From a virus, in UHGV virus genome UHGV-0163196: a DNA stretch of 42,561 nt; one strand, given 5' to 3'. Positions 4,759-35,340 of the stretch are shown here, piece after piece (the stretch's first letter is position 1; every line of letters begins with the position of its first letter). The notes below the pieces were generated by a model that worked only from the letters and a program-made list of their open reading frames with translations, searched no databases and was not told the origin of the DNA. A program made the position numbers and the translations under genes.

Positions 4759-4770
4759 GGCCCCACCTCA

Positions 4771-5865: not shown

Positions 5866-5867
5866 TT

Positions 5868-13301: not shown

Positions 13302-14243
13302 TCAGATACCGTCCACGTAGGACAGGGTTTCTTTGTACACTGGCTCAACCGCACCGAGCTTGCCGTAGTAGGTCGCAATCTGATACAGACCGCGATACTG
13401 GACAGGAACGCTTTGCAACGGCACCAGCGGATAGCGCACGTATTTCTTGTCGTTGGTGTAGGCGATCATACGGTCTTTACCGCCAACCCCACGCCCTTTC
13501 AGCCATTTGACCGCTTTGATTTCAAGCGGAACGCCGTTCTGGTGGAAAGCGATAGTGTTCACAGCCAGATAGGTCAGCAGTGACTGGTTACCCGCTTCGG
13601 AAACCTTACGGCTCGCCAGCAGTGAATACTGCTCTGGCGGAATGCGCAGATCAGAAGGCACGATGGAATAACCGGATGCTGCCCAGGCATTAGACAGAAT
13701 GCTGTTCACGCTATCGAGGATCTCGTCGTTGGTTGAGTTCGCCCAGATCTTCGGCGCGTTGTTCAGCGTCACACCGACGAGGTTTGCCAGACCTTTCAGG
13801 CCGAGTGCGTCATCACCGATGTAAACCTGCTCGTCGTTGTCCATCTGCCATTTGAGCTGCATCCCGTCGTACTTCTGGGTATCAATCGGGCGGCCTACCT
13901 GCTGAGCAGCTGCCAGCTCTACAACGGTCCAGCCCAGTTCCATACCCCAGAGGTTCAGTGGATTGCCGTCTTTGCTGATATCCACGTTCACGCCAGCAAT
14001 AGCGGTGGAGTCTTTGCCTACCCAGTTTTTACCGTTCGGATTTGCGCCAGTACCCGCAGCGCCAAAACTGGTGTTAGTCCAGCTGGAAATGTCATCTGCG
14101 ATAGAAACGTCTTCACGCAGCTGAATATCGCGGGTCCAGGTGTAACCCACCAGCGGCAGATTCAGCGTCTGGTCGAGTCGCTCCAGCTCCCCGATGAGAA
14201 AGGCACCAGAGCTATCAACGGTTGCCTGATCAAAAGTAATCAT
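13302..14243 (-). CDS. Major capsid protein (putative)
   Basis: 313 aa ORF, the largest in the head block, preceded by a 160 aa decoration/scaffold-like ORF. Confidence 0.6.
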   Translation of the reverse strand: MITFDQATVDSSGAFLIGELERLDQTLNLPLVGYTWTRDIQLREDVSIADDISSWTNTSFGAAGTGANPNGKNWVGKDSTAIAGVNVDISKDGNPLNLWGMELGWTVVELAAAQQVGRPIDTQKYDGMQLKWQMDNDEQVYIGDDALGLKGLANLVGVTLNNAPKIWANSTNDEILDSVNSILSNAWAASGYSIVPSDLRIPPEQYSLLASRKVSEAGNQSLLTYLAVNTIAFHQNGVPLEIKAVKWLKGRGVGGKDRMIAYTNDKKYVRYPLVPLQSVPVQYRGLYQIATYYGKLGAVEPVYKETLSYVDGI

Positions 14244-14254
14244 TCGTCTGTTCC

Positions 14255-14737
14255 TTAAATCTTCCAGGAGATTTCTGCATTGCCGTTAGCGTCACCGGCC
14301 CCTGTGAATTCGGCGTTGGTCAGCGCCACGTTTTTGCCACTGACGGACGTGGACATGAAGCCGCCCAGCGGCACTTTGATGGATTCATCAGTGGAGACGA
14401 CAACGTATACCGGGTCGCCTTTTTTGATGGTGCTGGCATCAAAATCAGAACCGAGATTAACGGTCATGTAGCCACGCTTCATGGCGTCACCCGGGAAGTT
14501 CTTATCCGTCCCCACCTGGCGAACCATGTCTGGCTGCGATGTGGTCGGATACGGACGAACGTAGATCCCCTTCACCTTGTCGGCGGTGTCACCGTCCGCC
14601 AGCGGCACGAAAAAGCCGTCAGCGTCATATTTGCCAGCCAGACCATAGGCAGCGAAGGCGTTAGCGGATTTAAGGATCACCGGTTCGACGGTTAAGTCCT
14701 GCGGGCGAGAGATAGCCCCGGCAATGCCAACAGGCAT
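14255..14737 (-). CDS. Head decoration or scaffold-like structural protein
   Basis: 160 aa ORF immediately upstream of the major capsid gene; first helper gene left of the inserted island. Confidence 0.45.
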   Translation of the reverse strand: MPVGIAGAISRPQDLTVEPVILKSANAFAAYGLAGKYDADGFFVPLADGDTADKVKGIYVRPYPTTSQPDMVRQVGTDKNFPGDAMKRGYMTVNLGSDFDASTIKKGDPVYVVVSTDESIKVPLGGFMSTSVSGKNVALTNAEFTGAGDANGNAEISWKI

Positions 14738-14969
14738 CCGGTACAGGAATGCAAGGCTATTATTTAATCACCTGAAATATAAGGGTTTATTTGCAGTCTG
14801 ATTTTGCGTGTAGTCCATAGGCTGCTCTGTGATGTATGTCGCTGAATGGGGTAAGTTACTCAATAACAGATCTGTAGGATTTACAGGGGATTTCAATATG
14901 CAAGCTGTGCCACCAGCCCATTAGCGAACGGCGCTATTTTCCGCGCGTGACGTGTCACGGCGCTGGTGG

Positions 14970-15443
14970 TTATCCCATGAATTTGCGGTATACCTCCCCG
15001 GCTTCTTCGGCGGTTAGGTTCGTTGTTTCCGTTCTGATCGGACCACCATCCTTACCCGTTGTTTCAACCTTTAATTTGTTGGTGTAAGCGTCCCCGCACT
15101 CTTTCGCGGCCTGTTCGATAAGCTGTGCTGTTAATGCGTAATTCTTGATTGCCTCTGCACGGTTCGCCATGCGATCGAGCATACGCAGCCGGTACGCTTT
15201 GTTAGCGATAGGGATATCGGATATTTCACTCTGGAAGCGGGCGCGAGTGTGATTAAAGAGTTCTACCCATTTTTGGCTAAGATTTTTAGCCATTGTATTT
15301 TCAGGGTTGTAGGCCGATATCTGTTGCCGGGTAACAACGATGCCAAAATCTTGTTTTACAAGTTCGACGATTCTGGAAGGGGGTTCATAGCAAGCTAATG
15401 ATTGAATAATCATAACCTTAGCCATTGTTGGTAATGCCGCCAT
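14970..15443 (-). CDS. Small terminase-like protein (Sf6 gp1-like; candidate packaging-redirection factor)
   Basis: 157 aa; C-terminus KLKVETTGKDGGPIRTETTNLTAEEA resembles the Sf6 gp1 terminus (…VGKDGGAIQIETSP…); lies far from terL, inside the island. Confidence 0.55.
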   Translation of the reverse strand: MAALPTMAKVMIIQSLACYEPPSRIVELVKQDFGIVVTRQQISAYNPENTMAKNLSQKWVELFNHTRARFQSEISDIPIANKAYRLRMLDRMANRAEAIKNYALTAQLIEQAAKECGDAYTNKLKVETTGKDGGPIRTETTNLTAEEAGEVYRKFMG

Positions 15444-15535
15444 TGTTCACCTTTTGACAAAGGAAATAAAAGTAGCGTGCTGAGTTCTGCCCCTGCACCG
15501 CTACTTAAAGTTACAGATCACGTCATGGGTAGCTA

Positions 15536-16108
15536 TCACTCGCTCTCCAGATCCTCAAGAGAGAAGCAAATATGCTGTGTTGAAACAAAATAGCTCAGCA
15601 TGCTGCTTACCTTGTTTGACGCGACGTAATTATAATGCTCGACCATCTTTGCTAACGCGATAATCTCCCACCAGTAATGCTTAACTAGCTTTAGCGAAAT
15701 TAAATAAGCCCGGCTATAGAGCTTGTCGCAATCATCTCCTGTTGCGCCTTGGTTCCTGTATTGCTCAAGCACTTTCCGAATATCGCTGGCGTCTCCTTTC
15801 CCTCCATTTTCCAGTAGTTTTTCAGGTGGTTCGCCTGAGTAAAGGTGTTGTGCCATTACGCCAGAAAAAGAGACGACCATCTGCGCCAGTTCATCTTTTC
15901 TGACGGGGAGATGTGAGCATACCGCCCGGCAATTATCGACCTCTTTGCCGTTAGCCAGTCGAGCAATACGAAACTCATCAGCAATAGATATCTCAATTTG
16001 CCTAGCACCCGTAAACCACGCAGCCATCGCGTGACCGGCTTCATGGATCGCGATATTTCTGTCCCACATAGGGCTTTTGCTGAATTCAACAATTACGCCA
16101 TCACTCAC
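15536..16108 (-). CDS. Standalone HExxH zinc metallopeptidase-like protein
   Basis: 190 aa with the motif IAIHEAGHAMAAW (HEAGH, as in FtsH/M41 and ImmA-like peptidases) and no ATPase domain. Confidence 0.5.
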   Translation of the reverse strand: MSDGVIVEFSKSPMWDRNIAIHEAGHAMAAWFTGARQIEISIADEFRIARLANGKEVDNCRAVCSHLPVRKDELAQMVVSFSGVMAQHLYSGEPPEKLLENGGKGDASDIRKVLEQYRNQGATGDDCDKLYSRAYLISLKLVKHYWWEIIALAKMVEHYNYVASNKVSSMLSYFVSTQHICFSLEDLESE

Positions 16109-16170
16109 GCTGCTTACTCTCCGTTAGATCTGTCATTTAGTTAAATTGAACTGCGTTGGGGGAGTCTCCA

Positions 16171-16350
16171 TCACACACTCCCTTCAACTGCTATTGATTC
16201 CAGCGCCTTAGCCACCAGCCCACGAGCAATTTGATGGACAGACGGCGCGACGCCAATATCGGAGCGCTGGCGTTCGCGCTCCTGGATCTTGCAGATTGCG
16301 GCGAACTGGTCGCCAGAGAGTAATACCGGCTTAACGTTTGGCTTTTTCAT
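16171..16350 (-). CDS. Small hypothetical protein (59 aa)
   Basis: Internal start MKKPNVKPVLLSG… of the 112 aa track ORF; the other reading would overlap the upstream 64 aa gene. Confidence 0.3.
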   Translation of the reverse strand: MKKPNVKPVLLSGDQFAAICKIQERERQRSDIGVAPSVHQIARGLVAKALESIAVEGSV

Positions 16351-16525
16351 CCTGTTCACTCCAGAACTTTGCATTCGCTTCGTTGACTTTTTCCAGATTG
16401 CGGCATTCGTTGTTGAAGTTGTTGCGCATCCGCAATTGCTCGGCCTGTTCACGGCCAAAGAGTTTACGCCCGGCGCTTTGCGGGTTTCCTGCAGCCAATT
16501 TCGGGTCATAAATAGCCATGCTCAT
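16331..16525 (-). CDS. Small basic hypothetical protein (64 aa)
   Basis: ATG preceded by AAGGAG with good spacing; lysine/glutamate-rich and probably helical. Confidence 0.4.
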   Translation of the reverse strand: MSMAIYDPKLAAGNPQSAGRKLFGREQAEQLRMRNNFNNECRNLEKVNEANAKFWSEQDEKAKR

Positions 16526-16531
16526 TGCTCC

Positions 16532-17095
16532 TTACTTCGTGCGATGCCAGAAACTGGCGTTATCGGTGTTAATGCTGCGAATGGCGTCGCCTGTGGAGAG
16601 AATCTTCGGTGAAACGTTGTTAACTCGCATGTAGTCGCCAACCTGCTCCAGAACGTCGATAGCCTGATCAAGCTGAATCTCTGATAGCGGGGTCGGATGT
16701 ACCGCACTGAATGCCTCAGCGGGTGCGTAACGCAGCACATCAAGCGCAACAAGGCGAGGATCGGTATCAGGAAGGGCGTTGTCATACTTTGGTGCTACAG
16801 CGCGTACCAGGCGCATAAATTCAGCGTCCATTGCCGTTGGTGCGGTAGAGGTGGGAGAAGCGCCGCTGCCACTACGTGTAATCATGTCACTATCGCGGGT
16901 GTACATCCGGCGCAAGCGGTCTCCGGTTGCAATGCGTGTTGCACGTTCCTGCTTAAGCGTCGTTGCAAGATTCGCAATGACGAGAGCCACAGGAAGCGAG
17001 CAGGTCAGCCTTTCGAACGTATCATCGGAGTAAGTCACCTCGACGGTACCACCAGCGTTATCACTTTCCAGATTAACATTGGTTATCTGTTTCAT
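16532..17095 (-). CDS. Hypothetical protein (187 aa), first gene of the island's left module
   Basis: ORF following a promoter-like AT-rich region at 17100-17250; no recognisable motif. Confidence 0.45.
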   Translation of the reverse strand: MKQITNVNLESDNAGGTVEVTYSDDTFERLTCSLPVALVIANLATTLKQERATRIATGDRLRRMYTRDSDMITRSGSGASPTSTAPTAMDAEFMRLVRAVAPKYDNALPDTDPRLVALDVLRYAPAEAFSAVHPTPLSEIQLDQAIDVLEQVGDYMRVNNVSPKILSTGDAIRSINTDNASFWHRTK

Positions 17096-17378
17096 TGTTC
17101 ATAACCTTTTGCGTTGTTTAAATTCTGATCATTGCATAAATTGCAACATTAGTAAATATCATTGCGCATATTGAAATGGCAAATCGACGTGATACTATGA
17201 CGGTGATCCACCATTGTGTGATTGCATAAACATGGTTATCAAAAGCCCTCGCCTCTCCAGCGCGGGCTTTTTCTTTTCCGCTCCGCAAAGTTGCCGTTTC
17301 CGCATACTTTCACTTAGGCGACGCCCCTCCAAATTCGTAATTACTCTCCGAAAAAACTCTATAGATAAGCAAAAACAT

Positions 17379-17675
17379 GTTGGTTCAGTTGGTTCAGTTG
17401 GTTCAATTTGTAAAGATTGTTGTTTTATAAGGATTATTTCTTTCAGAGTGAACCAACAAAGCCCCGTTTTGAACCAACAAACGCTATTTTCGTGTTGGTT
17501 CAGTGGGAAAGATTTACAGGCCAGCCAGAAAAAGGCGTTGGTTCAATAGCGGCATTTGTTGGTTCAAAATGGGCGTTTGTTGGTTCGGTGTTGGTTCACT
17601 TACAAGCATGTAAATGCATTAAATACATACACTTATATTAATTAAATAGTTACTGAACCAACTGAACCAACAAAA
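17379..17675. repeat. Iteron cluster: candidate satellite replication origin
   Basis: At least 12 copies of the core TTGGTTCA in both orientations (for example 17379-17405 tandem, 17449-17457, 17470-17478, 17494-17502, 17654-17670), interspersed with AT-rich DNA, immediately downstream of the primase-helicase gene. Confidence 0.7.
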
Positions 17676-17696
17676 AAACATCTCGTATGTGTGTTT

Positions 17697-20477
17697 TTAT
17701 TCTTCACCCTCCATCTCGTCGGGTCGTAGCTGGAGCACATAAACGTTTATCTGGCGTCCATCAATTCGCGGGGATTTACGCTGATACCCCCTTCCGCTGG
17801 CTGGCGGTTTCAGCACCCCAGCCCCGGCCAGCACACGGGCAAACTGTTTCGCGTTGAATCCCTTCGCAATCTCACCTTCGAATGCTGCCGGGAACGTGTA
17901 GAACACTATCGGATCAGCATCATGCGCCCCTTTCTGACGGTACCCGGCCAAATCCCGAATCGGCATGTCAGCCGGGTCATAAGGGTAAGGTGCAAATCGG
18001 CTCAGTCCGTATGCATTAAGAAACGCCTCTGCCTGCTCGATGATCTGCTTATGCTCACGGTTCCCCGTGCCAAACTCTTTCACCCAGGCGTTAAAGCCAT
18101 GCTGGATGGCGTCCCGGCTTTCCTGCTCCCCCCAGCCAGTGACAGGCATCCCAAGCACCAGCGCCGCCTCCAGAATGGCGAACCGCTCGCCTACACGATG
18201 AACCTGTTCGCCATAATCAGCGGGGATAAGACTGCGCCAGCGCTCTTGCGCCGCTCTGACAGCTTGTTTTGCCTCCTGCTGGTGGCCTGCAAGCCATTTA
18301 ATCCATTCACGGCCTGCGGCTCCGTGGTTCGTCTGGTAAGCCTCTTTGAGTGCGTCGGCGTGTTGCTTCCCGTTCTGGTACTCATGGTGCGTTACTGATT
18401 TCTCCATCGGTAAATTAAGCAGCCGCACCAGTTGTCCGGCCTTAACTTTCAGCCCACCAGCAGAAAGAAACGTCTCAATGTCCATTTCCCCGGTACTGAT
18501 CGCCACGGTACGCCAGCGCTTTAACTCGCGGTTGCCTCCCTCCTTCGCCCCCTGTAGCTTTCCGGCACCGTTAAACAGCGTGTAAGCTGACGTGGCAACG
18601 TCTTTGGCGCTACTGCCCTGCCCCACTTCGTCCAGCGGTAACAGGCTATCGTTATGCGCTTCCGCTTCGTTGGCGATACCCAGCGCAGTACCGTACCAGG
18701 TGAGGCGCAGGGCATCCGGTTCACCGTATAAACTGCTGGCAATGTTGGCGGTCGTTGTCTTCCCTGCGCTGGACTGTTCGAAAAGGTGAACACCGAAACC
18801 GTCAGCGCCAACAAGCCCGATCAGCGGTGCAGACAGCGCAGCCGCAACACCCAGCATCATTGACGGGTTTCCCAACGCAAGACGCGCCACCGAATCACGC
18901 CAGCTTTCCGGCGTTCCACTGACGGTATAGCCACCAGCCGCCGCACTGCGGCCACTGAATAAAAGCGGTATCTCTGGATCACCAATAACATCACCATCCG
19001 GCATGATGTACGCCCCGCTGTGCCAGCCTGTGGTGTGGCTGATCTGCCACTCCTTGCCGCTACCGGTTCGCTGTAGCCAGTCGGCCAGAATTGCCCGCAA
19101 CGATGGTTTGGTCGTCACACTGACACCGCCGTTTTTCAGAGTTCGCCATCCCTCGCGGTCGCCAATGTCCTCCCAAGGAAGCGCACGGGTAACTTGCCCC
19201 CGATTGCCGGGAACGTCCCAACGCAGGATCAGAAAGCGCTGTCTGGCGTTATCACTCCCCGCACCAGCAATCTCCAGCGGAGAGCATAGCCACGCCTCGG
19301 TATTGATAATTTCCCCTGTGTCTTTGTCCACTTTCGGGGTGATCCAGTGAATGCCATCCGAACGGCTCTCTACTCGCGGTTTAAGGTCGTCGTCGATACC
19401 AGGGCTTTTTTTGCCGCCGTCGATTGCTGTCAGTGTCGCACCCACTTTCTTACCCTCCGGTTGATACATTGAGTCGTTAAATGCTGCTGTGGCCGCTTCG
19501 AGGCCGTATTGCTGGTGGTAGTCGTTCCAGTCCGCTTTATAGTCCACTGGTGGCATGGAAACCCAGCCAGAAACGGCTTTCGCGGCTTTCTCTGCGGCCT
19601 CCTTGCCAGTGTTAACTTTCACTCCTTTAATTCCGTCACTTTCGCCCATCTGGTCGTTATCTGCGGCAATGATGATTTGTGCCTGTGGGTACTTCCGGCG
19701 CATCACTTCGGCAACGGGTAGCAGGTTGCCCGCGTCAATTGCTGCCACTGCCAGCGCGTCCGGGCGCATCAGGTGAACTGAAAGGGCCGTCGCCAGCCCC
19801 TCGGCAATTAAAACGCTCTGCGGCGATTCTGGCGCGTTTACGGCATGATATGCCCCGCGCTTTGCTGAACCTGTCAGGAGTCGCTTCTCTCCCTGCGGTG
19901 TAATGGTTTGCGCTGCTGCCACTGCGCCGGATTCGTCCACCAGCTCCAGCAATAACGAACCATCAGGCATAACCGGATAGTTAAACCCGGTCAGCCCTTT
20001 TGATTGCAGGTAATCAGATTCGCCCTGTGTGGCACTCTGGCGCATTCCGGCATACAGACGGGCAAACGTAGCCCTTCGCTGCTCTGCGTCCCCTGCTGCC
20101 TGTTTCTGGCGCTCCTGCTCACGCTGCTGGCGGTCAGCTTCCAGTTGCTCCCTTCTATGGCTCGCTGCCACCGGGTCGGATTGCGCTGCCAGGTAATCAA
20201 TACCCAGCACGTCAGCGGCAAGCTGTGCCGCCTCCGTAGTGTCGCAGTTGTTAACCCGCTTGATTAAATCCAGCCCGTCACCAGCGCCACACTGGTTGCA
20301 GATAAAGCTACCGCGCCCGTTGTCGTCGAATCTGAAACGGTCTTTTCCACCACATGCAGGGCATGGAGAATGGCGGCGCGATGAATCAGGCACGTCGATA
20401 GACAACCCAGCCAGCACATAAGGCCAGCGCCCTGCTGCGGCGCTGGTCACTTCGCGGATAAGGTCGATATTACGCAT
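17697..20477 (-). CDS. P4 alpha-like primase-helicase (zinc-ribbon, TOPRIM, D5-like helicase)
   Basis: Zinc ribbon CPACGG…CNQCG, TOPRIM-like IIIAADNDQ, Walker A SSAGKTTT; ~925 aa. Start taken at MRNIDLIRE. Confidence 0.85.
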   Translation of the reverse strand: MRNIDLIREVTSAAAGRWPYVLAGLSIDVPDSSRRHSPCPACGGKDRFRFDDNGRGSFICNQCGAGDGLDLIKRVNNCDTTEAAQLAADVLGIDYLAAQSDPVAASHRREQLEADRQQREQERQKQAAGDAEQRRATFARLYAGMRQSATQGESDYLQSKGLTGFNYPVMPDGSLLLELVDESGAVAAAQTITPQGEKRLLTGSAKRGAYHAVNAPESPQSVLIAEGLATALSVHLMRPDALAVAAIDAGNLLPVAEVMRRKYPQAQIIIAADNDQMGESDGIKGVKVNTGKEAAEKAAKAVSGWVSMPPVDYKADWNDYHQQYGLEAATAAFNDSMYQPEGKKVGATLTAIDGGKKSPGIDDDLKPRVESRSDGIHWITPKVDKDTGEIINTEAWLCSPLEIAGAGSDNARQRFLILRWDVPGNRGQVTRALPWEDIGDREGWRTLKNGGVSVTTKPSLRAILADWLQRTGSGKEWQISHTTGWHSGAYIMPDGDVIGDPEIPLLFSGRSAAAGGYTVSGTPESWRDSVARLALGNPSMMLGVAAALSAPLIGLVGADGFGVHLFEQSSAGKTTTANIASSLYGEPDALRLTWYGTALGIANEAEAHNDSLLPLDEVGQGSSAKDVATSAYTLFNGAGKLQGAKEGGNRELKRWRTVAISTGEMDIETFLSAGGLKVKAGQLVRLLNLPMEKSVTHHEYQNGKQHADALKEAYQTNHGAAGREWIKWLAGHQQEAKQAVRAAQERWRSLIPADYGEQVHRVGERFAILEAALVLGMPVTGWGEQESRDAIQHGFNAWVKEFGTGNREHKQIIEQAEAFLNAYGLSRFAPYPYDPADMPIRDLAGYRQKGAHDADPIVFYTFPAAFEGEIAKGFNAKQFARVLAGAGVLKPPASGRGYQRKSPRIDGRQINVYVLQLRPDEMEGEE

Positions 20478-20811
20478 GGTTGCCTCCTGCCACGGTCGCG
20501 CCCATATCATTAATCATGCTTTGCCATATCTCGCGCCCGACGTCAGTCAATCCGTCCTTAGTGACGCAACGATCAAGAAGCTCGATCCCCACGGTTTCCC
20601 ACTGCGGGTAGAACACTTTCATGGCTGCCAGTGTGTAGCTATCGATCAGGCTGCGAACGCCTTTTACTCCATTGACGATTTCCACACGGACGGCGAGGCC
20701 GTCCGCATCAACCATGAAATAGTCCCCGCCGCTGGTGGCGGTAATGTGGTTATACAGTGCCGACGCATACTTATTCGCCAGCGCATTCAGTCGGAAATTT
20801 TTAGTAATCAT
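20470..20811 (-). CDS. Hypothetical protein (113 aa)
   Basis: ORF coupled to the primase start; no recognisable motif. Confidence 0.45.
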   Translation of the reverse strand: MITKNFRLNALANKYASALYNHITATSGGDYFMVDADGLAVRVEIVNGVKGVRSLIDSYTLAAMKVFYPQWETVGIELLDRCVTKDGLTDVGREIWQSMINDMGATVAGGNHA

Positions 20812-20820
20812 GTCGCCCCC

Positions 20821-21447
20821 TCAGTGCGCCAGCGGCATTTCAGGCCAGCCGTTTTCATCCAGTTCAGCTATAAAGCTGTTGTGAAGTTCAGCAAGCGTTT
20901 CACGCCCGAACGGGGTCAACTCGCCGCGCTCCGTGTCCAGCATGGCCTGATAAAAAACAATGGCGTTCGCCGTTCCCTGCTCAATGCCGTAGCGCTCAAT
21001 CATTGCGCCCTCGATGTTGTTCGCCATCGCCAGCCGTTCAGCAAACGGGTAAACCACCATGCCCGCATTACCATTGGAGTAAATCGCCACCTGCGATGAT
21101 GTGCCGTCAGCCTCAGTAACCGTGGTGGTGCCGTTCTCGCGCTTCATCTCAGAAACGAACGTCGCAGCAATCAGCCAGCGCCACATAGTGACGTTATGCT
21201 GCGCGGTGAAGTCGAACCAGCCACGCGCCCCGCCATCAGCAACGGCAAAATGAATGGCGTAGCCGATATCGGGCGTATCGTCGTACTCTCCCGCATCCAG
21301 ACGGCTTACAGCGCTCTCATAGGTGATAATGGCTACATGCTCATACATCCCGGCATCGTTGCGGGTCATGATATTGACGCCGTGCGGTGTGGCTTCGGCG
21401 TGGAACAGGTCGGGATTTCCCGGTTTAATGGTCAGTATATTGCTCAT
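20821..21447 (-). CDS. Hypothetical protein (208 aa)
   Basis: ORF in the island's early operon; no recognisable motif. Confidence 0.45.
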   Translation of the reverse strand: MSNILTIKPGNPDLFHAEATPHGVNIMTRNDAGMYEHVAIITYESAVSRLDAGEYDDTPDIGYAIHFAVADGGARGWFDFTAQHNVTMWRWLIAATFVSEMKRENGTTTVTEADGTSSQVAIYSNGNAGMVVYPFAERLAMANNIEGAMIERYGIEQGTANAIVFYQAMLDTERGELTPFGRETLAELHNSFIAELDENGWPEMPLAH

Positions 21448-21665
21448 GCTTTGCCCTCCCGATATTCACGCATTACATGGTCAGCTAGCTTGCTTTCAGC
21501 CTCGCTCATTGCTTCGGGCACACCGTGTAACAGCGTCAGAATGGAACCTATAAGGCGTGGTAAATCGGGATCTGTTTTATTGGTGGTGCTCTCCAGCCAC
21601 ATGGACAAAACAGCCTGTGCCTGTTCAATCTGGCAGGCAGCATCAATCAGTTGTAACTGGCTCAT
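21444..21665 (-). CDS. Hypothetical protein (73 aa)
   Basis: Small ORF overlapping its neighbours by 4 nt. Confidence 0.35.
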   Translation of the reverse strand: MSQLQLIDAACQIEQAQAVLSMWLESTTNKTDPDLPRLIGSILTLLHGVPEAMSEAESKLADHVMREYREGKA

Positions 21666-21925
21666 GCGCTGCCCTCCGCATCAATTCTGGCTATATCGAC
21701 AATCGTCAGGACTTTACTAAGCCAGCAATACGCGATGGCTGCTTGCTCAACTTCGAGGAGTGGTAATAAATCGGTCATAACGTGAGCCAGCCCATTGCGG
21801 GCGCGGGTCATGCGTTCTGCGGTACGCTCTGCCAGCGTGAAAGAGTCAGGGTACGGCTGTTCGCGGGATAGCATCGCCTCGGCCTCAAGATCTGCAGGAT
21901 GGCGATAGATGGTATGAATGTTCAC
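21662..21925 (-). CDS. Hypothetical protein (87 aa; GTG start or internal Met)
   Basis: ORF in series with the neighbouring small genes; start codon uncertain. Confidence 0.35.
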   Translation of the reverse strand: MNIHTIYRHPADLEAEAMLSREQPYPDSFTLAERTAERMTRARNGLAHVMTDLLPLLEVEQAAIAYCWLSKVLTIVDIARIDAEGSA

Positions 21926-22101
21926 GCTGCCACCTCCTGAATACGAGTAATACGAACGTGCTTATAACCGCCTTTATTCGCCAGTAGTTGCGCAGTCGAT
22001 TTAGCTGTTTCTGGACTGGTGCTAGTCATGGTGTAGTGAATGCCGACGGTGTTACCGCGCTTGTTAACAGCGTATCCGTCGATCTGGAAGGTTTTACGCA
22101 T
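21922..22101 (-). CDS. Small hypothetical protein (59 aa)
   Basis: Hand-translated MRKTFQIDGYAVNKRGNTVGIHYTMTSTSPETAKSTAQLLANKGGYKHVRITRIQEVAA; below the ORF track length cut-off. Confidence 0.3.
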   Translation of the reverse strand: MRKTFQIDGYAVNKRGNTVGIHYTMTSTSPETAKSTAQLLANKGGYKHVRITRIQEVAA

Positions 22102-22972
22102 TTCCGACCTCCATTGCTAAACGGGACTGGATAGCTGCCGCTTTACTGCCTAATTGCAGGTAAGTACGAGTTATCGCAGGGTTGCTATGACCCAGCATTT
22201 CAGAGGCCACTAATAGGCCCTGTTCGCCACCTGCGGACATGAGGTTAAAGGCGGCTATTTTGCGGCTTGAGTAGGCGCTCAGGCGCAATTTAGCGTTAAT
22301 GAAACGGGTAAACCACGCCATGACGCCATGAAGTTTGCGCCAGATGGTTTGGCGAGTAACGCTACCTTCCAGACGTTGACAACGGTTACTTTCGATTTGA
22401 GAGCGGGAAAATACCAGGTCGTCCTCCACCAGATTCCGATCCTGACGGTCACGCAGCCGCTTGATAATGCCGGGGGGTAACTGTTTGGTGTCGTGCTTGA
22501 CGTCAGCCTTAGCCACCAGCCCGAACACAATCGCCTGTTCTTCGTCGTTCATATCGGCGGCCAGTTCATCACAGCCGATACTATCCCACTTCATGTAGGC
22601 GATATGGTCAGCGGCGAGCCGCGCGGCGTCCTTGCGCTGCTGGCGCACAATTTCAATACCTTTGCGGGTTGCCCGCGCTTCTGCGGCTTTGGTCTGTTTG
22701 GAAACGATAATTGTCGCCTGTCCAGTTTCCCAATTGATGCAGGAATAGCGCAGGTTGCAAACGTCGCTGGTACGCCAGCCGGTTACGGTCGCAATATCCC
22801 ACCAGAGCAACACCCAATCGGGCTGTGTCTGCTGGATGCGCTCGCGTAGCTTGCGCTGCTCGTCACGGTCATAGACAGGGGTCATGGTGCGACTGCCCTT
22901 TGTGCTCGCCGCTTTAACGACATTGCCGCGCAGCTCGCGGGCTTTGGCTGTCAGAGTCTGGAGGTTAAACAT
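22094..22972 (-). CDS. Second tyrosine recombinase (short phage-integrase family, no arm-binding N-domain)
   Basis: About 292 aa from MFNLQTLTAKAREL; C-terminal LGHSNPAITRTYLQ with a candidate catalytic Tyr and conserved Arg/His positions. Confidence 0.65.
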   Translation of the reverse strand: MFNLQTLTAKARELRGNVVKAASTKGSRTMTPVYDRDEQRKLRERIQQTQPDWVLLWWDIATVTGWRTSDVCNLRYSCINWETGQATIIVSKQTKAAEARATRKGIEIVRQQRKDAARLAADHIAYMKWDSIGCDELAADMNDEEQAIVFGLVAKADVKHDTKQLPPGIIKRLRDRQDRNLVEDDLVFSRSQIESNRCQRLEGSVTRQTIWRKLHGVMAWFTRFINAKLRLSAYSSRKIAAFNLMSAGGEQGLLVASEMLGHSNPAITRTYLQLGSKAAAIQSRLAMEVGNA

Positions 22973-23153
22973 GACGCACCTCCGGCACTGGCAGACGTGC
23001 GGCCAGAGACAAAATAAAGTGCGGCGCAAGGATGCGGCGGGCTTCGCGTTCGGTCGCAGCCTCAACGGACAGACGGCAAGGTTTGGCTTTTTTATCGTGG
23101 CGATTCAGCGCGAGAAAGCGCCAGGTGAATTTTGAGTGTGCGGATCTAGCCAT
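22965..23153 (-). CDS. Small protein (possibly Icd/Ash-like)
   Basis: 62 aa, MARSAHSKFTWRFLALNRHDKKAKPCRLSVEA…; recalled resemblance to small Icd-like prophage proteins only. Confidence 0.35.
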   Translation of the reverse strand: MARSAHSKFTWRFLALNRHDKKAKPCRLSVEAATEREARRILAPHFILSLAARLPVPEVRHV

Positions 23154-23473
23154 TTTTAGCGGCTCCTAGAACATATTGAAGGAGTCTCGCCAGATGCTGC
23201 TAAACATGGGTGGCGAGACGTGACGGGGTTAGCAGACTGGCGTTCTAGGAAACCAGCAGGCGTTAAGCCTCCCCACCACGCCCCGCCATAAATCGGGGGT
23301 ATGGTTGGTTTTCGGGCGTAAAAATACCGCTATACGGAAATCAGCGGCTACCCGCTAGAACGTTCAGGCTGCTAAACCCGGCACCCGTTTTGTGAGGTGC
23401 GAAATAATCATAACCACACTACCCCGTTAAGCGCAAGGGAAATATCCCCTGCGCCCACAATGCAAACTTGTGA
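23154..23473. promoter_or_regulatory. Repeat-rich intergenic region (candidate recombinase/regulator binding sites)
   Basis: Motifs CTAGAAC and GCTGCTAAAC recur in direct and inverted orientation at 23161-23205, 23227-23250 and 23353-23377. Confidence 0.4.
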
Positions 23474-24544
23474 TTAGTACCCGCGAGAAGCGTAAACTCG
23501 TGCCATGCCAGCCCAATGAGAGAAAAGAATTTCCCACTTAATTGGGTTGTAGGTAATACTTCCATCGACTGCGGCAGCATTCCATGCCCGATCAGAAATA
23601 GAGCTATCTTTAGCAGTTTTCCCCCATTCAACAATATCCCTTGCTAAAGCCTGTACACATGCTCGACTGACTACCTTTTCGTCAACGTACGCCCCAACAT
23701 CAGAGCATGACTCCATACTCATGTTCAGGCTATTTTTAAGGGACTCCAGCCCGGCCACTGACATAAAGCGACGACCATTAGCGTATGCAACACCGTCATT
23801 CCTGATAGTGAACTTAACAGTGTGGAATGCGTCAACAATCATCCGCTGCTCTGGCGTCGGGTTCTGCCATAGCACAAGGTTAATCTCTCTCTCAGAAGCT
23901 ATTGATTCTGCTTTCTCACGCTTAACTCGTGCATCCCGTTCTGCCTGGTATTGTTTTTGATTTTCATCATGAGCCTTTTGGTAACTAGAGGCTAATGCGT
24001 CTCTGTTTTTGGCAAATGCTGCAATGCTATTTTTGAAATCGCTTCTGCTAACCTTGTTTAACCCCATACTCCAGCGGTCATTTTCGTAATCATCATAAAT
24101 GGCATCAACTTTTGCCGGATTACTCAGCACAGTCGCCAGATTAACCGGAATTTTAGCCATCTCGTCACTGATTCTCGCTACATGTTCGAAAGTCGATATA
24201 GAGCCAACTTCATGACTCCCATACTCATGATAAGCGGCATAAAAAATTGGAATAGATTGAGGTTTTTCGTTCACTGACTTAATGATGCTTTTTTCATCAC
24301 ATGACTGTTCACCCCATTTGAAAACACTTTTCCCACCATTTTTGTATGTGTTGCAATCATCAATACCCAAACGAACCAGCGCATCCCATCCGGGCCGTTT
24401 CTTGTAATCCTCGCTCTTGACAACATGCATTGTGGTTAGGGCTTTCGCAGGATCTAACTTGCCAGCGGTACAAGACACGATAGGAAAGGCCAGAGAAGCG
24501 CAGGCTGCTATCCTGAAAAGGCTCGTCAATCTTTCTTTTTTCAT
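23474..24544 (-). CDS. Lipoprotein of unknown function (island cargo)
   Basis: 356 aa; N-terminus MKKERLTSLFRIAACASLAFPIVSC carries a signal peptide with lipobox-like Cys; AT-richer than its surroundings; flanked by ~0.3 and ~0.9 kb non-coding DNA. Confidence 0.6.
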   Translation of the reverse strand: MKKERLTSLFRIAACASLAFPIVSCTAGKLDPAKALTTMHVVKSEDYKKRPGWDALVRLGIDDCNTYKNGGKSVFKWGEQSCDEKSIIKSVNEKPQSIPIFYAAYHEYGSHEVGSISTFEHVARISDEMAKIPVNLATVLSNPAKVDAIYDDYENDRWSMGLNKVSRSDFKNSIAAFAKNRDALASSYQKAHDENQKQYQAERDARVKREKAESIASEREINLVLWQNPTPEQRMIVDAFHTVKFTIRNDGVAYANGRRFMSVAGLESLKNSLNMSMESCSDVGAYVDEKVVSRACVQALARDIVEWGKTAKDSSISDRAWNAAAVDGSITYNPIKWEILFSHWAGMARVYASRGY

Positions 24545-24708
24545 CGTCCTAATGCTCTTTCAAACCAAGAATGTAGGACATAGTAAATTGTGGTTAATGG
24601 CAAGTCGATATAAAGGCCGGGTTATTGGCTTCGGTGCCAATATCATTTCTCCGAAATTTCATAACGCCTGTAATCGCTCGTTTCCCCATCTTGGGGACAT
24701 TTCAAAAC

Positions 24709-24828
24709 TGCGAATCAAAGTGCGAATGGAACTGCGAATTCGCAAAGAGAGAGCGCCGCTCAAAGCAGGCCGGATAAGGCTTCGCGGACATATTGCGAAT
24801 GCGAATCCACCAGAAACGAAACGCGAAT
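24709..24828. repeat. GCGAAT repeat cluster including the palindrome TGCGAATTCGCA
   Basis: Six copies of (T)GCGAAT within 120 bp; the 12-bp palindrome at 24733-24744 also occurs twice in the helper terS gene. Confidence 0.55.
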
Positions 24829-25384
24829 CACCCATAAACAAAACCGATACGCAGGGAGCGTACTGCCCGTATTCAATCGGCCGAAAAGTCAGCCGATTAA
24901 AATCATGCCCGGCTATCCCCTGAAATTTCAGGAGATCGAGAGCCACCAGCAGAGAACCGTTCATGCCATCGGTAACTTGCAGCCCGAAGCTCAAATCTGA
25001 GCGTTGACCGCCAGCCAGAAGAAACCATTTTAAATCCCGCGCCTTCTCTTTGGATGAACAGGGTTACTCCCCGTAATGCTGTGAACTGCCACGATGATTC
25101 GGGGTTGTGTTGCGCTGGCCTTTGAGTCCCGCACAAACACTGACCCACAAAATTTTTGTAGGTGACTGGCCCTCTTGATGAGGTGCTGTTTTGCGTAACC
25201 CTTAATGAGTTGTGCAAAGGCTCAACCCTTCAAAAGGGTTGCCTAACCACCGGCGATAGTAATAACCGCCAACCTATGAACACTATGAACACCTTTGAGC
25301 ATTTTTCTATAAACATTCCACTACTGCCCTATTTGATGCCTTTCTCTGGCTGGCCTGTGTAAGTTACCGTTGCTGGGAACTGAC

Positions 25385-25420
25385 AATAAAAAAGGCTTGC
25401 CCCTCTCAGGTAACAAGCCT
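25385..25420 (-). terminator. Putative intrinsic terminator downstream of alpA
   Basis: Stem aggcttg/caagcct at 25393-25420 with a run of A on the plus strand at 25386-25392 (U-run on the minus transcript). Confidence 0.4.
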
Positions 25421-25438
25421 TGTCTATCGCTCTGGATC

Positions 25439-25651
25439 TCACTCACTACAGATTCCGCGCTTTTGGCTCTGTCTTCCGATCCACGCCTCCACCTCATCGC
25501 GATACCAGCAATTGCGGCCGCCAACTTTGAAGGGCATCGGAAAGCCGTTCCCCTCATCCTTCAGAAATTCATAGAACGCAGAATCAGAACGGTAGCGTAG
25601 ACGGGCTTTAACTTCGACTTTGAGCAAAATATCACTGTTAGATATGGACAT
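25439..25651 (-). CDS. alpA: AlpA-family transcriptional regulator/excisionase
   Basis: 70 aa with the typical AlpA pattern (…FPMPFKVGGRNCWYRDEVEAWI…), directly downstream of the integrase gene. Confidence 0.75.
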   Translation of the reverse strand: MSISNSDILLKVEVKARLRYRSDSAFYEFLKDEGNGFPMPFKVGGRNCWYRDEVEAWIGRQSQKRGICSE

Positions 25652-25793
25652 AAAAACCTCATTATATATTCGATATAATTATATATGATTTGAATAAAAA
25701 AAACGCATTCCGGTTAGCTTTGGGCATAAAAAAAGCTGGCTTAAAGCCAGCTATACCCGTTTGAAATCATGATTATCCAGAAATGGATGTGCC

Positions 25794-27023
25794 TTACACA
25801 ACCAGCCTCAAGCCCTTATCGCCGCTGGTCTCCAGTATTTCGCCACACTCTGCGGCCTCGATAAAGTCCCCCCACCATTGCATTAAAACCCGGCGTTTTT
25901 CCAGATAGTCGCTACGGTTATAAACATTTCGAATCGCATCGGCGCTTTTGTGAGCGAGTGCAGCCTCAATCACATCAGGGTTGAACCCCTCGTCATTTAA
26001 AACTGTAGATGCCAACGCCCTGAACCCATGAGGAACAATCAGCCCTTTAAACGACGTTTTGTGTATCCCGGCCTGAGTCGCACAGCGTGAGATCGGCTTA
26101 TTTTCTTTTCGCCATGAGGGGAAAACATAATCGCAGCGCTTCCACTTTTCGGCCTCTTTAAGCACGTTTATAGCCTGGCTCGATAATGGGACTACGTGGG
26201 GGCGCTTTCCTTTCATCCGGCTTGCAGGGATTTGCCAGATTGAGTTATCAAAATCAATCTCATTCCAGAGAGCGCCGCCAGCCTCCGAAGGCCGGACCAT
26301 CGTAATGATCTGGAATAATAATGCCAGCTTTGATGGCTCCCATAAGCTCAACTCGTTCCATGCGCTTAAAAATTCGGGCAACCGCTCTTTCTGTAAAGTC
26401 GCTCTTGGCTCGTTTTTTTCAGCCGGGAATGCTTTACCAATTTTCGATAGCGGGTTGTGCTCAATAACCCCAATGTTTACCGCATAATCCATTATGGCGT
26501 TGATGGTAATAACCATTTTCGTAAGCGTTGATGGCCTTTCCCTGAAAGGTTTAAAAGCCTGAATAGTATCGGCTGCGTTTATTTTATGTACCGTGGTATG
26601 CCTAAAAATCGTGGAAAGATGCTTCAACGTCACATTGTGCGATTCAAGCGTGTTGCTTCTCGCACCTTCTTTAATCTTGATTTTTAGCCATTCATCGGCA
26701 ACGGCCTGAAATGACTGCGCGTACATTTTACGCTGTTCATTCCTGGCATCTTTTTTGACTTCGTTCGGATCTATCCCTCGCGCTACCATACGGCGCAGTT
26801 TCGAACGTTCCTCCCTCGCTTCGGACAAAGTAAACTCCGGGTATCGTCCAATAGTATAGGTTTGTCTCTTCTTCGTTACCGGGTGTACATACCGAAAACG
26901 CCATGACTTACCGCCCCGGCTTGTGATGTAAAGCAACAAACCGAAACCATCGTGCAAACTGAAATCCTTGCCCTGTGCCTTCGCGCTTTTCACTTCGACG
27001 CTAGTTAGTGGCCTAACAATCAT
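25794..27023 (-). CDS. int: P4-type tyrosine integrase
   Basis: 409 aa; N-terminal arm-binding domain typical of P4-like integrases (…DGFGLLLYITSRGGKSWRFRY…) and a C-terminal catalytic domain. Confidence 0.85.
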   Translation of the reverse strand: MIVRPLTSVEVKSAKAQGKDFSLHDGFGLLLYITSRGGKSWRFRYVHPVTKKRQTYTIGRYPEFTLSEAREERSKLRRMVARGIDPNEVKKDARNEQRKMYAQSFQAVADEWLKIKIKEGARSNTLESHNVTLKHLSTIFRHTTVHKINAADTIQAFKPFRERPSTLTKMVITINAIMDYAVNIGVIEHNPLSKIGKAFPAEKNEPRATLQKERLPEFLSAWNELSLWEPSKLALLFQIITMVRPSEAGGALWNEIDFDNSIWQIPASRMKGKRPHVVPLSSQAINVLKEAEKWKRCDYVFPSWRKENKPISRCATQAGIHKTSFKGLIVPHGFRALASTVLNDEGFNPDVIEAALAHKSADAIRNVYNRSDYLEKRRVLMQWWGDFIEAAECGEILETSGDKGLRLVV

Positions 27024-27237
27024 TCAACACCTCTCTGGCTACCATGTAATGCAAACGGCGCATGATTCTCTTTCTAGTCCCTCATGTACCGAATCAAAGC
27101 GAAATCCGGCGAATAAATCCGCACATGTTCGGAGTGTCATTTTTATGGTTCAGGCCAGTAACGCCGTATGATTCCGAACGATAACGCACTGATTAATAGA
27201 TATTAGTTGCATAAGGTACAGATATGCAGTCATTGGA

Positions 27238-28458
27238 TTATCCTTTGCGGTTAGACCAGAAGTCGGCGTTTTGTTTGTTCAGGGAAGCGATGCTGGTCAT
27301 GCCCATATTTGGACGTTGTGCATCGCCCGTGGTGCTGCGGGTGTTTCGCCCTTTGGCAATCTCTGACACGGCGTTAAACGCCATATCTACCGATTGCTTG
27401 GGCAATTTGCGGATATCTGCATCACCGACAACCTGGCGAACCAGTGTTTTGTCAGCGGCGGACAGCACATCACGTTTGAACGCGGTCGGTTTCACCTTAC
27501 GGCTCAGATCGATACCCGGGACGATAACTTCGGCACGATAAGCAGCGTCACCAGTAATCGTGGTTTCTTCTTCATCGTCCTCGCCGTCACCGGTCGGATT
27601 ATCGTCAGGCTTATTGTCGTTATCGCCCGTCGCAGTTCCTTCGAGCTTAGCCAGCAGGGCTTTGAGCAAGGTTTTGATATCGTCCTCGCCGTCGCCGGTT
27701 GGCTCTCCGCCCATTTCCGGCTTTTTGTCCGGCAATGGTTGCTGCGGTGAAAGGTTAATGTTGAGGTTAACGCCGCTCGGCAGATCCCCTTCGTCACCCG
27801 TTACCGCCGCTGGCGCAGAGTCCAGCAGTTCGTTCATGGTGTCAGCGTCACCCGTTTTGATGGCCGTGCGCATGCGGGTCCACCAGCTTTTCTTTTGATT
27901 TGCCATTGTGTCTCTGTCTCCAATTGCACAACGATTTCCGGCTCTGCCTTTGGGGACAAGAGCCACATGGTTTCCGGTAATATCGACCTGCTCGGCTTTA
28001 CCTGGCTCGGTCTGCTCGTACTCCGCGTCATAGCCGCACGACACTTCACGCAGGCCATCTTCGATAAGCTGAATGGCGTTTTCGTCTTTGACGATAAGGT
28101 CAGCCAGCATCAAATCAGACTGATCACCAGTCCCGCGCCGAACGTTCTGAAGATGCCCGACCGCAAGCTCTTTCCAGTTCTCGGGGTTGACCAGCCGCAC
28201 ATTTCCGTTTTCATCTTCAGGATGCAGGATCGTGATGCTCATCCCTTCGAATGAGGCGAGCGTGGCCGGATGGAATACCTGCTCAGGAGAGCGCGTTACG
28301 ACTATTTCACCGAACTTATCGGGTTTCAGTTTTGGCAGGTCATCAGCACCATAGAGCTGCTTACCTGTTCGTCCTATCGGCACGTCTTTGCACAGCAGCG
28401 AGCCGTCAGCCAGCTGATAACGGGTTTCCCCCAGCCGGGTATTGAAAAAATATTTCAT
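27238..28458 (-). CDS. Capsid scaffold/maturation protein (putative), with acidic Gly/Asp-rich linker
   Basis: 406 aa ORF downstream of the head-morphogenesis gene; central low-complexity acidic region. Confidence 0.45.
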
Positions 28459-31967: not shown

Positions 31968-32646
31968 TAAGGTCACGATCTCCATTACCGTCATCAACGC
32001 CAGCATCACGACGAAGGCGATCCGCTTCCAGAGACACTTTGTCAGTGGAGGCGAGCCGATGCTCTATAGATGCCTTTGTGAATTCCAGCGACTCAATGCG
32101 GGCCGTGTTACGGTGCATGGCTTTTTGCGCAGATGAAATTAGCTCGTGAAGATTATTGGCGGTATCGCCATCAGCTATTTCAAGCTCAGTCTGCCAGCGG
32201 CCAATATTTTCAGCAGCGGTAAGGTTCGCCGCACGCAACCAGAAAAGCTCATCATCAAGAGTGAGCGCCTGAGCATCCTCGGTAATGGCATCAGATAGAA
32301 GCATTCGGCGTCCATAGCCACCATGCTTCAATGCGTTCTGATTTCCGGGTCTGGAATTATAATGAGCGCGTTTCGTTTCTGGTGAGTTTGATGGTTTTGC
32401 GACTTCGCAGTTATCCACTAAGCCCGCTGGTGGCTTACTCTTTGCCACTTTCTCCTTTTGCGAATTCGCAGTTTTATTCGCACTTTTCTTTTGCGAATTC
32501 GCACTACCATTCGCAATTTTGATATAGCGCTTTGCAGTCGAGTAATTCAGTCCCTGCGCTTCACACCATTCTTTGGGGGAAATGCCGGTTTTGGCATGTT
32601 CGGACAGGAACCGTTGCTGAAGCTCGCCCCAGTCCGGCTTTGCCAT
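31891..32646 (-). CDS. terS: Terminase small subunit (HTH N-terminus)
   Basis: 251 aa directly upstream of terL; N-terminal HTH-like segment (ISPKEWCEAQGLNYSTAKRYI); contains palindromic DNA repeats. Confidence 0.55.
   Translation of the reverse strand: MAKPDWGELQQRFLSEHAKTGISPKEWCEAQGLNYSTAKRYIKIANGSANSQKKSANKTANSQKEKVAKSKPPAGLVDNCEVAKPSNSPETKRAHYNSRPGNQNALKHGGYGRRMLLSDAITEDAQALTLDDELFWLRAANLTAAENIGRWQTELEIADGDTANNLHELISSAQKAMHRNTARIESLEFTKASIEHRLASTDKVSLEADRLRRDAGVDDGNGDRDLNDFYSDIQTDPESGPKELLDDTGSK
32459..32516. repeat. Palindrome TGCGAATTCGCA x2 plus ATTCGCA half-sites inside terS (candidate pac/TerS recognition site)
   Basis: Full copies at 32459-32470 and 32492-32503, half-sites at 32476-32483 and 32508-32516; encodes the repeated peptide ANSQK. 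Confidence 0.4.
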
Positions 32647-35296: not shown

Positions 35297-35340
35297 CAGC
35301 ATATGTGAATATTATGGCTAAATGGCTAATTGCATGTCAA
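35297..35340 (-). promoter_or_regulatory. Putative late promoter pR' (qut region)
   Basis: Minus-strand TTGACA (plus 35335-35340) and CATAAT (plus 35311-35316) with ~18-nt spacer, overlapping the 3' end of Q. Confidence 0.4.

Follow-up and report, generated by a model that had tools for sequence, protein, structure and literature searches.

The 42,561-nt stretch of viral DNA analysed here (UHGV virus genome UHGV-0163196; hereafter the window) contains a phage satellite of 12,475 bp, at positions 14747–27221, which splits the late operon of a prophage, a Brunovirus/SEN34-like myovirus. It is highly probable that this satellite is integrated inside the genome of its own presumed helper, a SEN34-like (Brunovirus-type) temperate myovirus. 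Sequence comparison supports this through integration at the heptamer CTGTACC, exact restorability of the helper cement gene, attP joints, and recurrence of the same arrangement across divergent satellites. An initial annotation of the window had described a co-oriented block of ~12.5 kb in the head operon; the block is real, with coordinates that were 2–16 bp off, whereas its placement "precisely between" the scaffold and decoration genes is not borne out, as codons 5–7 of the cement gene are hit.

The same annotation took residence in a prophage structural operon to be unusual. The finding is less odd than that, because helper embedding was published in 2023: 491 helper-embedded phage-inducible chromosomal islands (HE-PICIs) were described at 14 sites in lambdoid late genes, all of them recovered via similarity to one integrase (PMC10111431). 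The window element fits this configuration, its integrase, AlpA-like, and primase genes being co-oriented with the late gene that it interrupts.

Boundaries and target gene

The element measures 12,475 bp when its boundaries are placed at two copies of CTGTACC, at 14740–14746 and 27215–27221. Read in gene orientation, the upstream junction is ...AAGGATAATCCA-ATGAC-TGCATAT-CTGTACC-TTATGC-AACTAAT... and the downstream junction is ...AATAGCCT-TGCATTC-CTGTACC-GGATGC-CTGTTGG..., each the same in all five occupied alleles aligned; attL and attR can thus be defined by junction alignment, as had been proposed. By comparison, attP is TGCATTC-CTGTACC-TTATGCA and attB is TGCATAT-CTGTACC-GGATGCC, and the crossover is, on the evidence of these alignments, the 7-bp overlap CTGTACC lying between inverted TGCAT/ATGCA arms. 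Such a 7-bp overlap flanked by inverted arms is what tyrosine integrases classically use. The overlap is assigned to CTGTACC because of the attP joint and the empty sites of GG type described below. A crossover in the terminal ATGC (the last 4 bp) of a 20-bp imperfect repeat was also considered; it is ruled out by the same two observations.

As read from the sequence, the insertion point is intragenic rather than intergenic, falling in codons 5–7 of the helper cement gene. The native ATG of this gene (27233–27231) is preceded by an AAGGA ribosome-binding site, with the stop codon of the DUF2213 gene 4 nt upstream. On the far side of the satellite, the called open reading frame (ORF) of the cement gene starts at an internal methionine, Met8, in front of which lies satellite sequence with an in-frame TGA and no Shine–Dalgarno-like motif. 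Two Pfam profiles, XM1_gp53_minor_capsid and Phage_cement, match this ORF, and both align only from profile position 8–9 onwards, which suggests that the missing residues belong to the family. Separation from its first seven codons would presumably silence or weaken production of the cement protein in the integrated state. An intact cement gene is present in an empty-site prophage and in Citrobacter phage Omnitron. No tRNA genes that might have served as an integration target were found in the window.

Empty sites, occupied relatives, and excision

A 17-kb region was compared with 5426 complete Escherichia coli genomes. In most matching prophages, dozens in number, the two flanks are directly joined (~4.54 kb), and they are likewise joined in phages Omnitron and SEN34. 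The site is occupied in four of the 5426 genomes (ABWA45, ET791, ECONIH5, and EC2001), against 86 records with an intact full-length site; four further occupied contigs were found in IMG/VR. Joining the window flanks in silico at CTGTACC gives ATGACTGCATATCTGTACCGGATGCCTGTTGGC, a 96-nt excision product that is matched at 100% in at least 15 E. coli prophages among the matches listed and at 99% or more in 71 records. Its 33-nt core is carried verbatim by Omnitron. The four E. coli satellite copies cover 62%–88% of the window satellite at 92%–97% identity, and their junctions are identical to those of the window.

These observations leave almost no room for a phage module native to this position or an assembly chimera. 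Such an origin would draw on the window being seemingly metagenome-derived, and on nothing further; against it stand empty sites in isolated phages and in many prophages and the same structure in four finished chromosomes. Since four complete E. coli chromosomes have these same junctions and many sites are uninterrupted, the arrangement is attributable neither to chance nor to chimerism. The empty-site allele that the initial annotation had asked for exists, and each of the refutation checks set out there favours a mobile satellite.

Circular-junction sequence, also named there as a check, exists in two metagenome contigs. In IMG/VR contig 3300045988_113726, the attP joint is found as real sequence, ...AATAGCCT-TGCATTC-CTGTACC-TTATGC-AACTAAT.... 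This contig is 99.98% identical to window 24511–14734 (9.8 kb), crosses the joint for 42 nt, and then ends; the equality 27,870 − 9,820 = 42,561 − 24,511 fits a contig running from the right end of the window through the satellite. We infer that two continuations confronted the assembler in this sample, an integrated one and a circular or tandem one. The joint is not an assembly artefact, because an identity of 7 bp is too short to create it. The second contig, OGVK01015064.1 (1050 bp), has a 135-bp attP core, of which 105 bp match the IMG/VR joint at 100%. Judged from these joints, excision of the satellite is an event that occurs in nature.

An accidental, off-target, or decayed insertion that has lost mobility is, on these data, very unlikely. 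Occupancy is indeed rare (the four genomes against 86 intact records), and off-target events are known for HE-PICIs (PMC10111431). On the other hand, identical junctions surround divergent satellite variants, attP joints exist, all satellite ORFs are intact, and the integrase cluster to which the window sequence belongs has 106 member sequences on 77 contigs.

The attB site is polymorphic immediately after the overlap (window 14738–14739), where the cement gene has either GG (Arg7) or TT (Leu7). All five aligned occupied alleles are of the GG type, and the single TT allele examined is empty. In this very small sample, the polymorphism might affect integrase binding and act as a phage escape.

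The helper prophage

Nearly all window genes lie on the minus strand, and the backbone is that of a temperate myovirus with lambda-style regulation, which also encodes a DnaB-type helicase. Among phage records, the nearest are Omnitron, with 97% identity over the flanks, and, from the genus Brunovirus, Salmonella phage SEN34, with 90%. The head module is Mu-like, in the order TerS, TerL, portal (Phage_portal_3), MuF-like, DUF2213, cement, and major capsid, and the tail genes include sheath, tape-measure/transglycosylase, and baseplate genes. Two further features were observed in the helper: a Doc (Fic/DOC) toxin and Phd/YefM antitoxin pair (window 3511–4349, minus strand), a moron within the baseplate cluster, and an HNH_3 endonuclease gene (34518–35027, minus strand) between the Q antiterminator and the lysis cassette.

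Gene content of the satellite

All satellite genes are on the minus strand, co-oriented with the helper late operon (Table 1). From the gene list of the initial annotation, the integrase, second recombinase, primase–helicase, and iterons are confirmed, while the AlpA assignment is below threshold and the TerS-like assignment holds by position only.

Table 1. Features of the satellite and of the flanking helper genes, in window coordinates.
Feature	Position	Strand	Basis and remarks
S24/HTH repressor	41767–42480		Helper regulation
Q-type late antiterminator	35318–35836	−	Pfam Phage_antitermQ 1.3e-25; helper
Small terminase subunit TerS	31891–32646	−	PHROG 370 'terminase small subunit' 1.7e-75; helper
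Large terminase subunit TerL	30564–32009	−	Pfam Terminase_3 8.4e-38; helper
DUF2213 (Pa193_gp24 family) head-assembly gene	27238–28458	−	Pfam; upstream flank of satellite
Orphaned cement 5′ end	27215–27233	−	Ribosome-binding site, ATG 27233–27231, codons 1–6; runs into 27-codon dead-end ORF
Upstream overlap copy CTGTACC	27215–27221	−	Junction ATGAC-TGCATAT-CTGTACC-TTATGC-AACTAAT; identical in five occupied alleles
Primary tyrosine integrase	25794–27023	−	Pfam Arm-DNA-bind_3 1.3e-23, Phage_integrase 1.1e-22; first gene after junction
Intrinsic terminator-like hairpin	25734–25752	−	Directly 3′ of integrase gene; 8-bp stem, five G-C pairs, then TTTTTTT
AlpA-like 70-aa helix-turn-helix protein, candidate excisionase/activator	25439–25651	−	Pfam Phage_AlpA 16.8 bits
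GCGAAT/ATTCGC hexamer cluster	24710–24828		Seven copies, non-coding; conserved in eight related satellites
356-aa protein, accessory cargo	23474–24544	−	Lipoprotein-like N terminus (...LAFPIVSC..., signal-peptide/lipobox-like); no family match
isrK-like leader RNA, candidate C4 target region	23320–23400	−	Rfam isrK 44.6 bits (gathering score 50, not reached), E 4.7e-07
C4 antisense immunity RNA (P1 c4/P4 CI class)	23206–23293	−	RF01695, 75 bits against gathering score of 45, full-length
Icd-like protein	22965–23153	−	NCBIfam phage_ICD_like 1.2e-22; first ORF past C4 RNA
Second tyrosine-recombinase-like protein	22094–22972 (ORF to 23065)	−	Pfam Phage_integrase 4.9e-11; probable start ATG 22972
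Five small ORFs upstream of primase gene	20470–22101	−	PHROG 1515 and PHROG 37628, both uncharacterised families
Primase–helicase	17697–20510	−	Pfam Zn_Ribbon_Prim 1.4e-15, Toprim_3 7.1e-14, DUF927 3.4e-45
Iteron field, candidate replication origin	17379–17671		11 exact TGAACCAAC copies, both orientations
187-aa conserved late-zone protein	16532–17095	−	EC2001 homologue (98% identity) named XRE-family regulator by RefSeq
190-aa HEAGH zinc-metalloprotease-motif protein	15536–16108	−	Homologues in variants named peptidase M41 family
DUF2280 protein, candidate TerS	14970–15443	−	Pfam DUF2280 6.6e-39; last satellite gene
Downstream overlap copy CTGTACC	14740–14746	−	Junction AGCCT-TGCATTC-CTGTACC-GGATGC-CTGTTGG
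Helper cement/decoration gene body	14255–14737	−	Start codon and ribosome-binding site severed; called ORF starts at internal Met8
Major capsid protein	13302–14243	−	Pfam; helper

The AlpA-like ORF aligns closely over its whole length with an ET791 protein that RefSeq names AlpA family. At the position of the second recombinase-like protein, proteins of ~290–295 residues with weak or faint Phage_integrase matches occur in five relatives of the satellite lineage. Inspected by eye, the second recombinase keeps the box I arginine (GWRTSD) and GH...Y, with SSRK in place of HxxR. Conceivable roles are the resolution of multimers or regulation.

Part of the replication module is widely shared. Sequence from window ~19.5–22.0 kb is found again, with ~90% identity, in hundreds of chromosomal islands whose annotation reads 'phage/plasmid primase, P4 family', and the stretch with the five small ORFs has ~90% DNA identity to many such P4-family primase islands. 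The 11 iteron copies compare with 0.36 expected by chance, a count reached in none of 100 shuffles.

The hexamer GCGAAT/ATTCGC, including the palindrome GCGAATTCGC, clusters only twice in the 42.5-kb window; the second cluster, of six copies, lies in the 5′ part of helper terS (32460–32514). In EC2001, the satellite cluster is kept, yet the helper terS/terL region examined there has none. The satellite cluster might mimic the packaging site (pac) of the helper, act as a decoy, or be an array bound by a regulator.

The 356-residue protein, which EC2001 lacks and the other three E. coli variants have, may be a surface or exclusion factor made by the resident satellite. Neither Pfam, PHROG, nor PADLOC gave a match for the 187-residue protein, and PADLOC defence models matched none of the ten satellite proteins to which they were applied. 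The HEAGH protein has no significant match among the sequences of solved structures. In phages, DUF2280 is preceded by a PhageMetallopep gene, to which the HEAGH protein shows no detectable similarity. A captured two-gene module of HEAGH and DUF2280 was considered and rejected on account of this dissimilarity.

No similarity was detected between the satellite proteins and a six-frame translation of the helper. Family scans of the satellite proteins revealed no virion-structural or lysis families; the EC2001 variant, however, has baseplate genes. No capsid-size-redirecting gene was recognised, and none of the 15 satellite ORFs scanned has a Psu or Ogr/Delta Pfam domain. The label "P4/PICI-like" given in the initial annotation therefore stands as a resemblance and goes no further.

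A candidate small terminase

The last satellite gene encodes the DUF2280 protein, and homologues with 59%–69% identity occur in phage contigs of 40–55 kb. In all ten phage contigs examined, the DUF2280 gene stands directly before, and often overlaps, an ORF of 415–570 residues. Six of these following ORFs were scanned with Pfam: two matched Terminase_6C, one Terminase_3/3C, two had no match, and one gave no more than a weak match, under threshold, to an unrelated domain. Of the two ORFs without a match, one shares 92% identity with the TerL annotated in the EC2001 helper. Of the ORFs that come next after the presumed TerL, two were scanned, and both are portal genes. The predicted secondary structure of DUF2280 has the usual TerS order, in which three short helices are followed by long helices, then two strands, and a helix at the end. 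Homology of DUF2280 to the helper TerS (PHROG 370) was considered as well, and no similarity was found; nor did the sequence have a significant match among those of solved structures.

Variants of the satellite

The variants share the integrase, the AlpA-like gene, the segment comprising the RNAs, Icd, and the recombinase, the primase, the 187-residue gene, and DUF2280 as last gene. Variation is concentrated in two zones, one from the AlpA-like gene to the C4 RNA and the other the late zone. In ET791 and ECONIH5, an oppositely oriented gene pair occupies the variable zone, and its first gene is assigned by RefSeq to the DUF6516 family (ET791) or to the toxin–antitoxin system TumE family (ECONIH5); the ECONIH5 satellite additionally has IS5. 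The late zone of EC2001 (4267–7502 of its compared stretch) contains five syntenic baseplate/plug/spike genes with 30%–59% protein identity to helper window 2727–6796. By this comparison, the EC2001 satellite has captured helper tail genes, which ties the satellite family to SEN34-like helpers. Late-gene capture is also described for HE-PICIs (PMC10111431), and the EC2001 baseplate capture is a parallel to it.

An integrase lineage found behind late genes

The founder of the HE-PICIs is Eco567.11capE of E. coli NRG857c (Tommasini, Mageeney & Williams 2023, PMC10111431). Membership of the published integrase clade was set at a TBLASTN score of at least 400 bits to the 11capE integrase, with which the window integrase scores 68.6 bits at 21% identity. 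The window integrase has 2646 homologues at E ≤1e-30, and the best 120 of them each score no more than 119 bits against the 11capE integrase. Sampled integrases are 39%–76% identical among themselves and 19%–23% identical to that of 11capE. Among deposited phage genomes, no encoded integrase exceeds 39% identity to the window integrase.

Genomic context was viewed for 12 integrase clusters at 41%–99% identity to the window integrase, as a sample rather than a survey (Table 2). In 11 of the 12, phage genes for packaging, head, or tail directly precede the integrase gene in the same orientation. The lineage spans at least three kinds of helper module: those of SEN34-like myoviruses, lambda-like phages, and phages with DUF4055-type portals. 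Many of the integrase relatives (41%–63%) also share the Icd-like region, the recombinase-like protein of ~290 residues, and a DUF4222 protein upstream of the primase.

Table 2. Upstream context of the sampled integrase clusters.
Cluster	Identity to window integrase	Upstream context
P0001	99%	Cement-gene site of the window
P0003	63%	Sheath-initiator gene, SEN34-like tail cluster
P0007	56%	Major capsid gene of SEN34-like phage, cut at 153 aa
P0010, P0021	56%, 51%	Terminase_2 protein, gap before integrase gene
P0013, P0085	55%, 41%	MuF-like or DUF6651 genes downstream of DUF4055-type portals
P0037	51%	Head–tail region, lambda-like late operon
P0033	50%	GpA-type TerL, cut at 333 aa
P0043	50%	DUF1441 protein, ~1.1-kb gap
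P0044	47%	Chromosomal genes; single exception
P0055	44%	Phage_portal_2 gene running into integrase start

We regard the chances as evenly balanced that this is a second large integrase lineage habitually aimed at prophage late genes, for which the embedded position is a possible induction switch. The HE-PICI authors noted that they had surveyed only close relatives of the founder integrase and considered the existence of further elements of this kind probable (PMC10111431). If such a second lineage is real, helper-nested satellites would be commoner and more diverse than one published clade suggests, and helper embedding would be a widespread, possibly convergent strategy instead of being peculiar to one clade. 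Such loci would be misread, as oversized prophages or broken head operons, by prophage and satellite finders that do not allow nesting.

The sampled contexts also bear on a different view of the window element, namely that it is an integrative island, carrying host cargo for instance, for which the prophage is a mere landing pad and which is packaged and transferred independently of the phage. Speaking for it are the lack of any detected capsid-redirecting, Psu, or Ogr/Delta domain, a replication module in common with hundreds of chromosomal P4-family primase islands, and the lipoprotein-like and metalloprotease-like accessory genes. We nevertheless consider this view unlikely: the target is phage-specific, the sampled integrase clusters lie with a single exception co-oriented behind phage late genes, a homologue of the gene found in TerS position is the conserved last gene, the EC2001 variant has baseplate genes of helper type, and the PADLOC search for defence genes gave no match.

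Proposed life cycle

Sequence comparison shows that the satellite tyrosine integrase has recombined attP with attB in cement codons 5–7, parting the gene from its start codon and ribosome-binding site. From this state, a satellite nested in its presumed helper could follow the cycle below. Upon SOS induction, the composite prophage would excise and replicate, and Q-modified late transcription would proceed through terS, terL, portal, MuF, and DUF2213 into the co-oriented satellite. Such read-through would turn on the integrase and AlpA-like genes and overcome both the terminator that follows the integrase gene and the block controlled by the C4 RNA. The satellite would then excise, rebuilding the cement gene exactly and returning the helper from ~54 kb to ~42 kb, a packageable size. 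It would replicate from its own iteron origin with its own primase–helicase and be packaged into helper-made particles, most likely by means of its own DUF2280 small terminase and a large terminase of the helper. Upon reaching a new lysogen that harbours a related phage, the satellite would insert into the cement gene again.

If the embedded position is itself the induction switch in the putative second lineage, Q-antiterminated transcription would override the terminator-based C4-RNA immunity in cis, so that a dedicated anti-repressor would be unneeded. Antiterminated read-through is plausible because the helper encodes a Q antiterminator. In a crude scan, the stretch from the junction to the integrase gene had no promoter-like site, and the one from DUF2280 to the cement gene had no terminator-like site. 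At 12.5 kb, the satellite is ~0.30 of the 41.9-kb Omnitron genome, and a size ratio of ~0.30 is typical of small-capsid satellites. For the HE-PICI founder, satellite excision was detected after excision of the composite, once composite replication was substantial (PMC10111431).

Several points weigh against this scheme, and against the nested-satellite reading on which it builds. All steps of the cycle beyond integration and excision are inferred from sequence. The promoter scan, being crude, returned fewer sites than shuffled controls, so the missing promoter before the integrase gene is weak evidence. The Phage_AlpA score of the AlpA-like ORF lies below the 21-bit cut-off. A small terminase subunit is the best reading of DUF2280, made by gene position only: its AlphaFold model is weak (predicted local distance difference test 63.7, predicted template modelling score 0.30), and Foldseek ranks the TerS proteins of phages G20c and P74-26 first at non-significant values (G20c, the best, E 1.6, template modelling score 0.30–0.35). 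Helper terminase modules differ among the occupied prophages, and a fixed TerS–TerL partnership is for that reason not evident. Finally, contig OGVK01015064.1 is weak support for excision, because only 135 bp are common to it and the satellite: its flanks match none of the compared satellites and contain no integrase ORF. This contig may come from an element that is divergent or has no integrase but uses this attP, or it may be chimeric.

The nested satellite offers a compact and tractable system, since four finished E. coli strains carry it and the isolated phage Omnitron has the empty site. Questions that can be addressed with it include the timing of excision by helper late transcription, the work of a TerS of foreign family with differing large terminases, and attB polymorphism as a means of escape.

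Comparison with known systems

The closest parallels are the HE-PICIs. Both have the integrase gene first, followed by an AlpA-type gene (a candidate one in the window element), C4/isrK-type RNAs, a primase with origin, and a variable late zone. In neither does attP supply a substitute for the gene end that integration disrupts, which would make 'regulated gene integrity' serve the satellite. This shared configuration, together with the orientation and the zone order (integration, immunity RNAs, replication, late genes), might suggest an ordinary and fully known member of the published clade. That is highly improbable given the integrase, which is of an unrelated lineage and scores far below the clade cut-off. 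HE-PICI attP sites also have a doubled TGTATTGC motif ~81 bp upstream and ~132 bp downstream of the centre (PMC10111431). In the window, TGTATTGC has only two matches (15757 and 38636), no more than chance, neither of them near an att site, and analysis of the attP arms found arm repeats other than this motif.

Further differences concern the helper, the target, and packaging. The helper here is a myovirus with a Mu-like head, whereas theirs is a lambdoid siphovirus. The HE-PICI site names recovered (12 of the 14) are terminase, portal, protease, capsid E, and tail L/T/V cognates (PMC10111431), and the cement 5′ end is not among these 12. In the parts of the text and supplements of PMC10111431 that were searched, neither 'Cement', 'DUF2213', nor the att sequence is present, nor is a helper of this type, and neither the att sequence nor the accessions were found in the supplements seen. 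The window element has a gene in TerS position, unlike 11capE, which is presumed to be cos-packaged and has no terS. A literature search, with poor reach into subscription journals, found no description of the window element. As far as the searchable literature goes, its integrase lineage, its myovirus helper with a Mu-like head, its cement 5′ target, and its TerS candidate of foreign family are new.

Gram-negative PICIs such as EcCICFT073 resemble the window element in size (~10–15 kb), in their int–alpA start, for which the window has a candidate alpA, in their primase/origin module, in being unidirectional, and in having no virion or lysis genes. They differ in residing at chromosomal sites and interacting with the helper only in trans, and EcCICFT073 has no terS. 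Induction and packaging have been demonstrated for them, whereas for the window element both are predicted.

With P4, the element shares an integrase of DUF4102 type, a CI/C4-class RNA upstream of the replication operon, a zinc-ribbon/Toprim primase–helicase, and a size about one-third that of the helper. Unlike P4, it has no detected Psu or Ogr/Delta domain, its helicase part is DUF927 instead of D5_N/DUF5906, its helper is not P2-like, and it is integrated in a phage and not in a tRNA gene.

In the Staphylococcus aureus pathogenicity islands (SaPIs), the satellite TerS is homologous to that of the helper. The DUF2280 protein, by contrast, is unrelated to the PHROG-370 TerS of its helper, and its role as a TerS is that of a candidate. 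As in SaPIs, however, a TerS candidate encoded by the satellite could direct the helper large terminase to satellite DNA for headful packaging.

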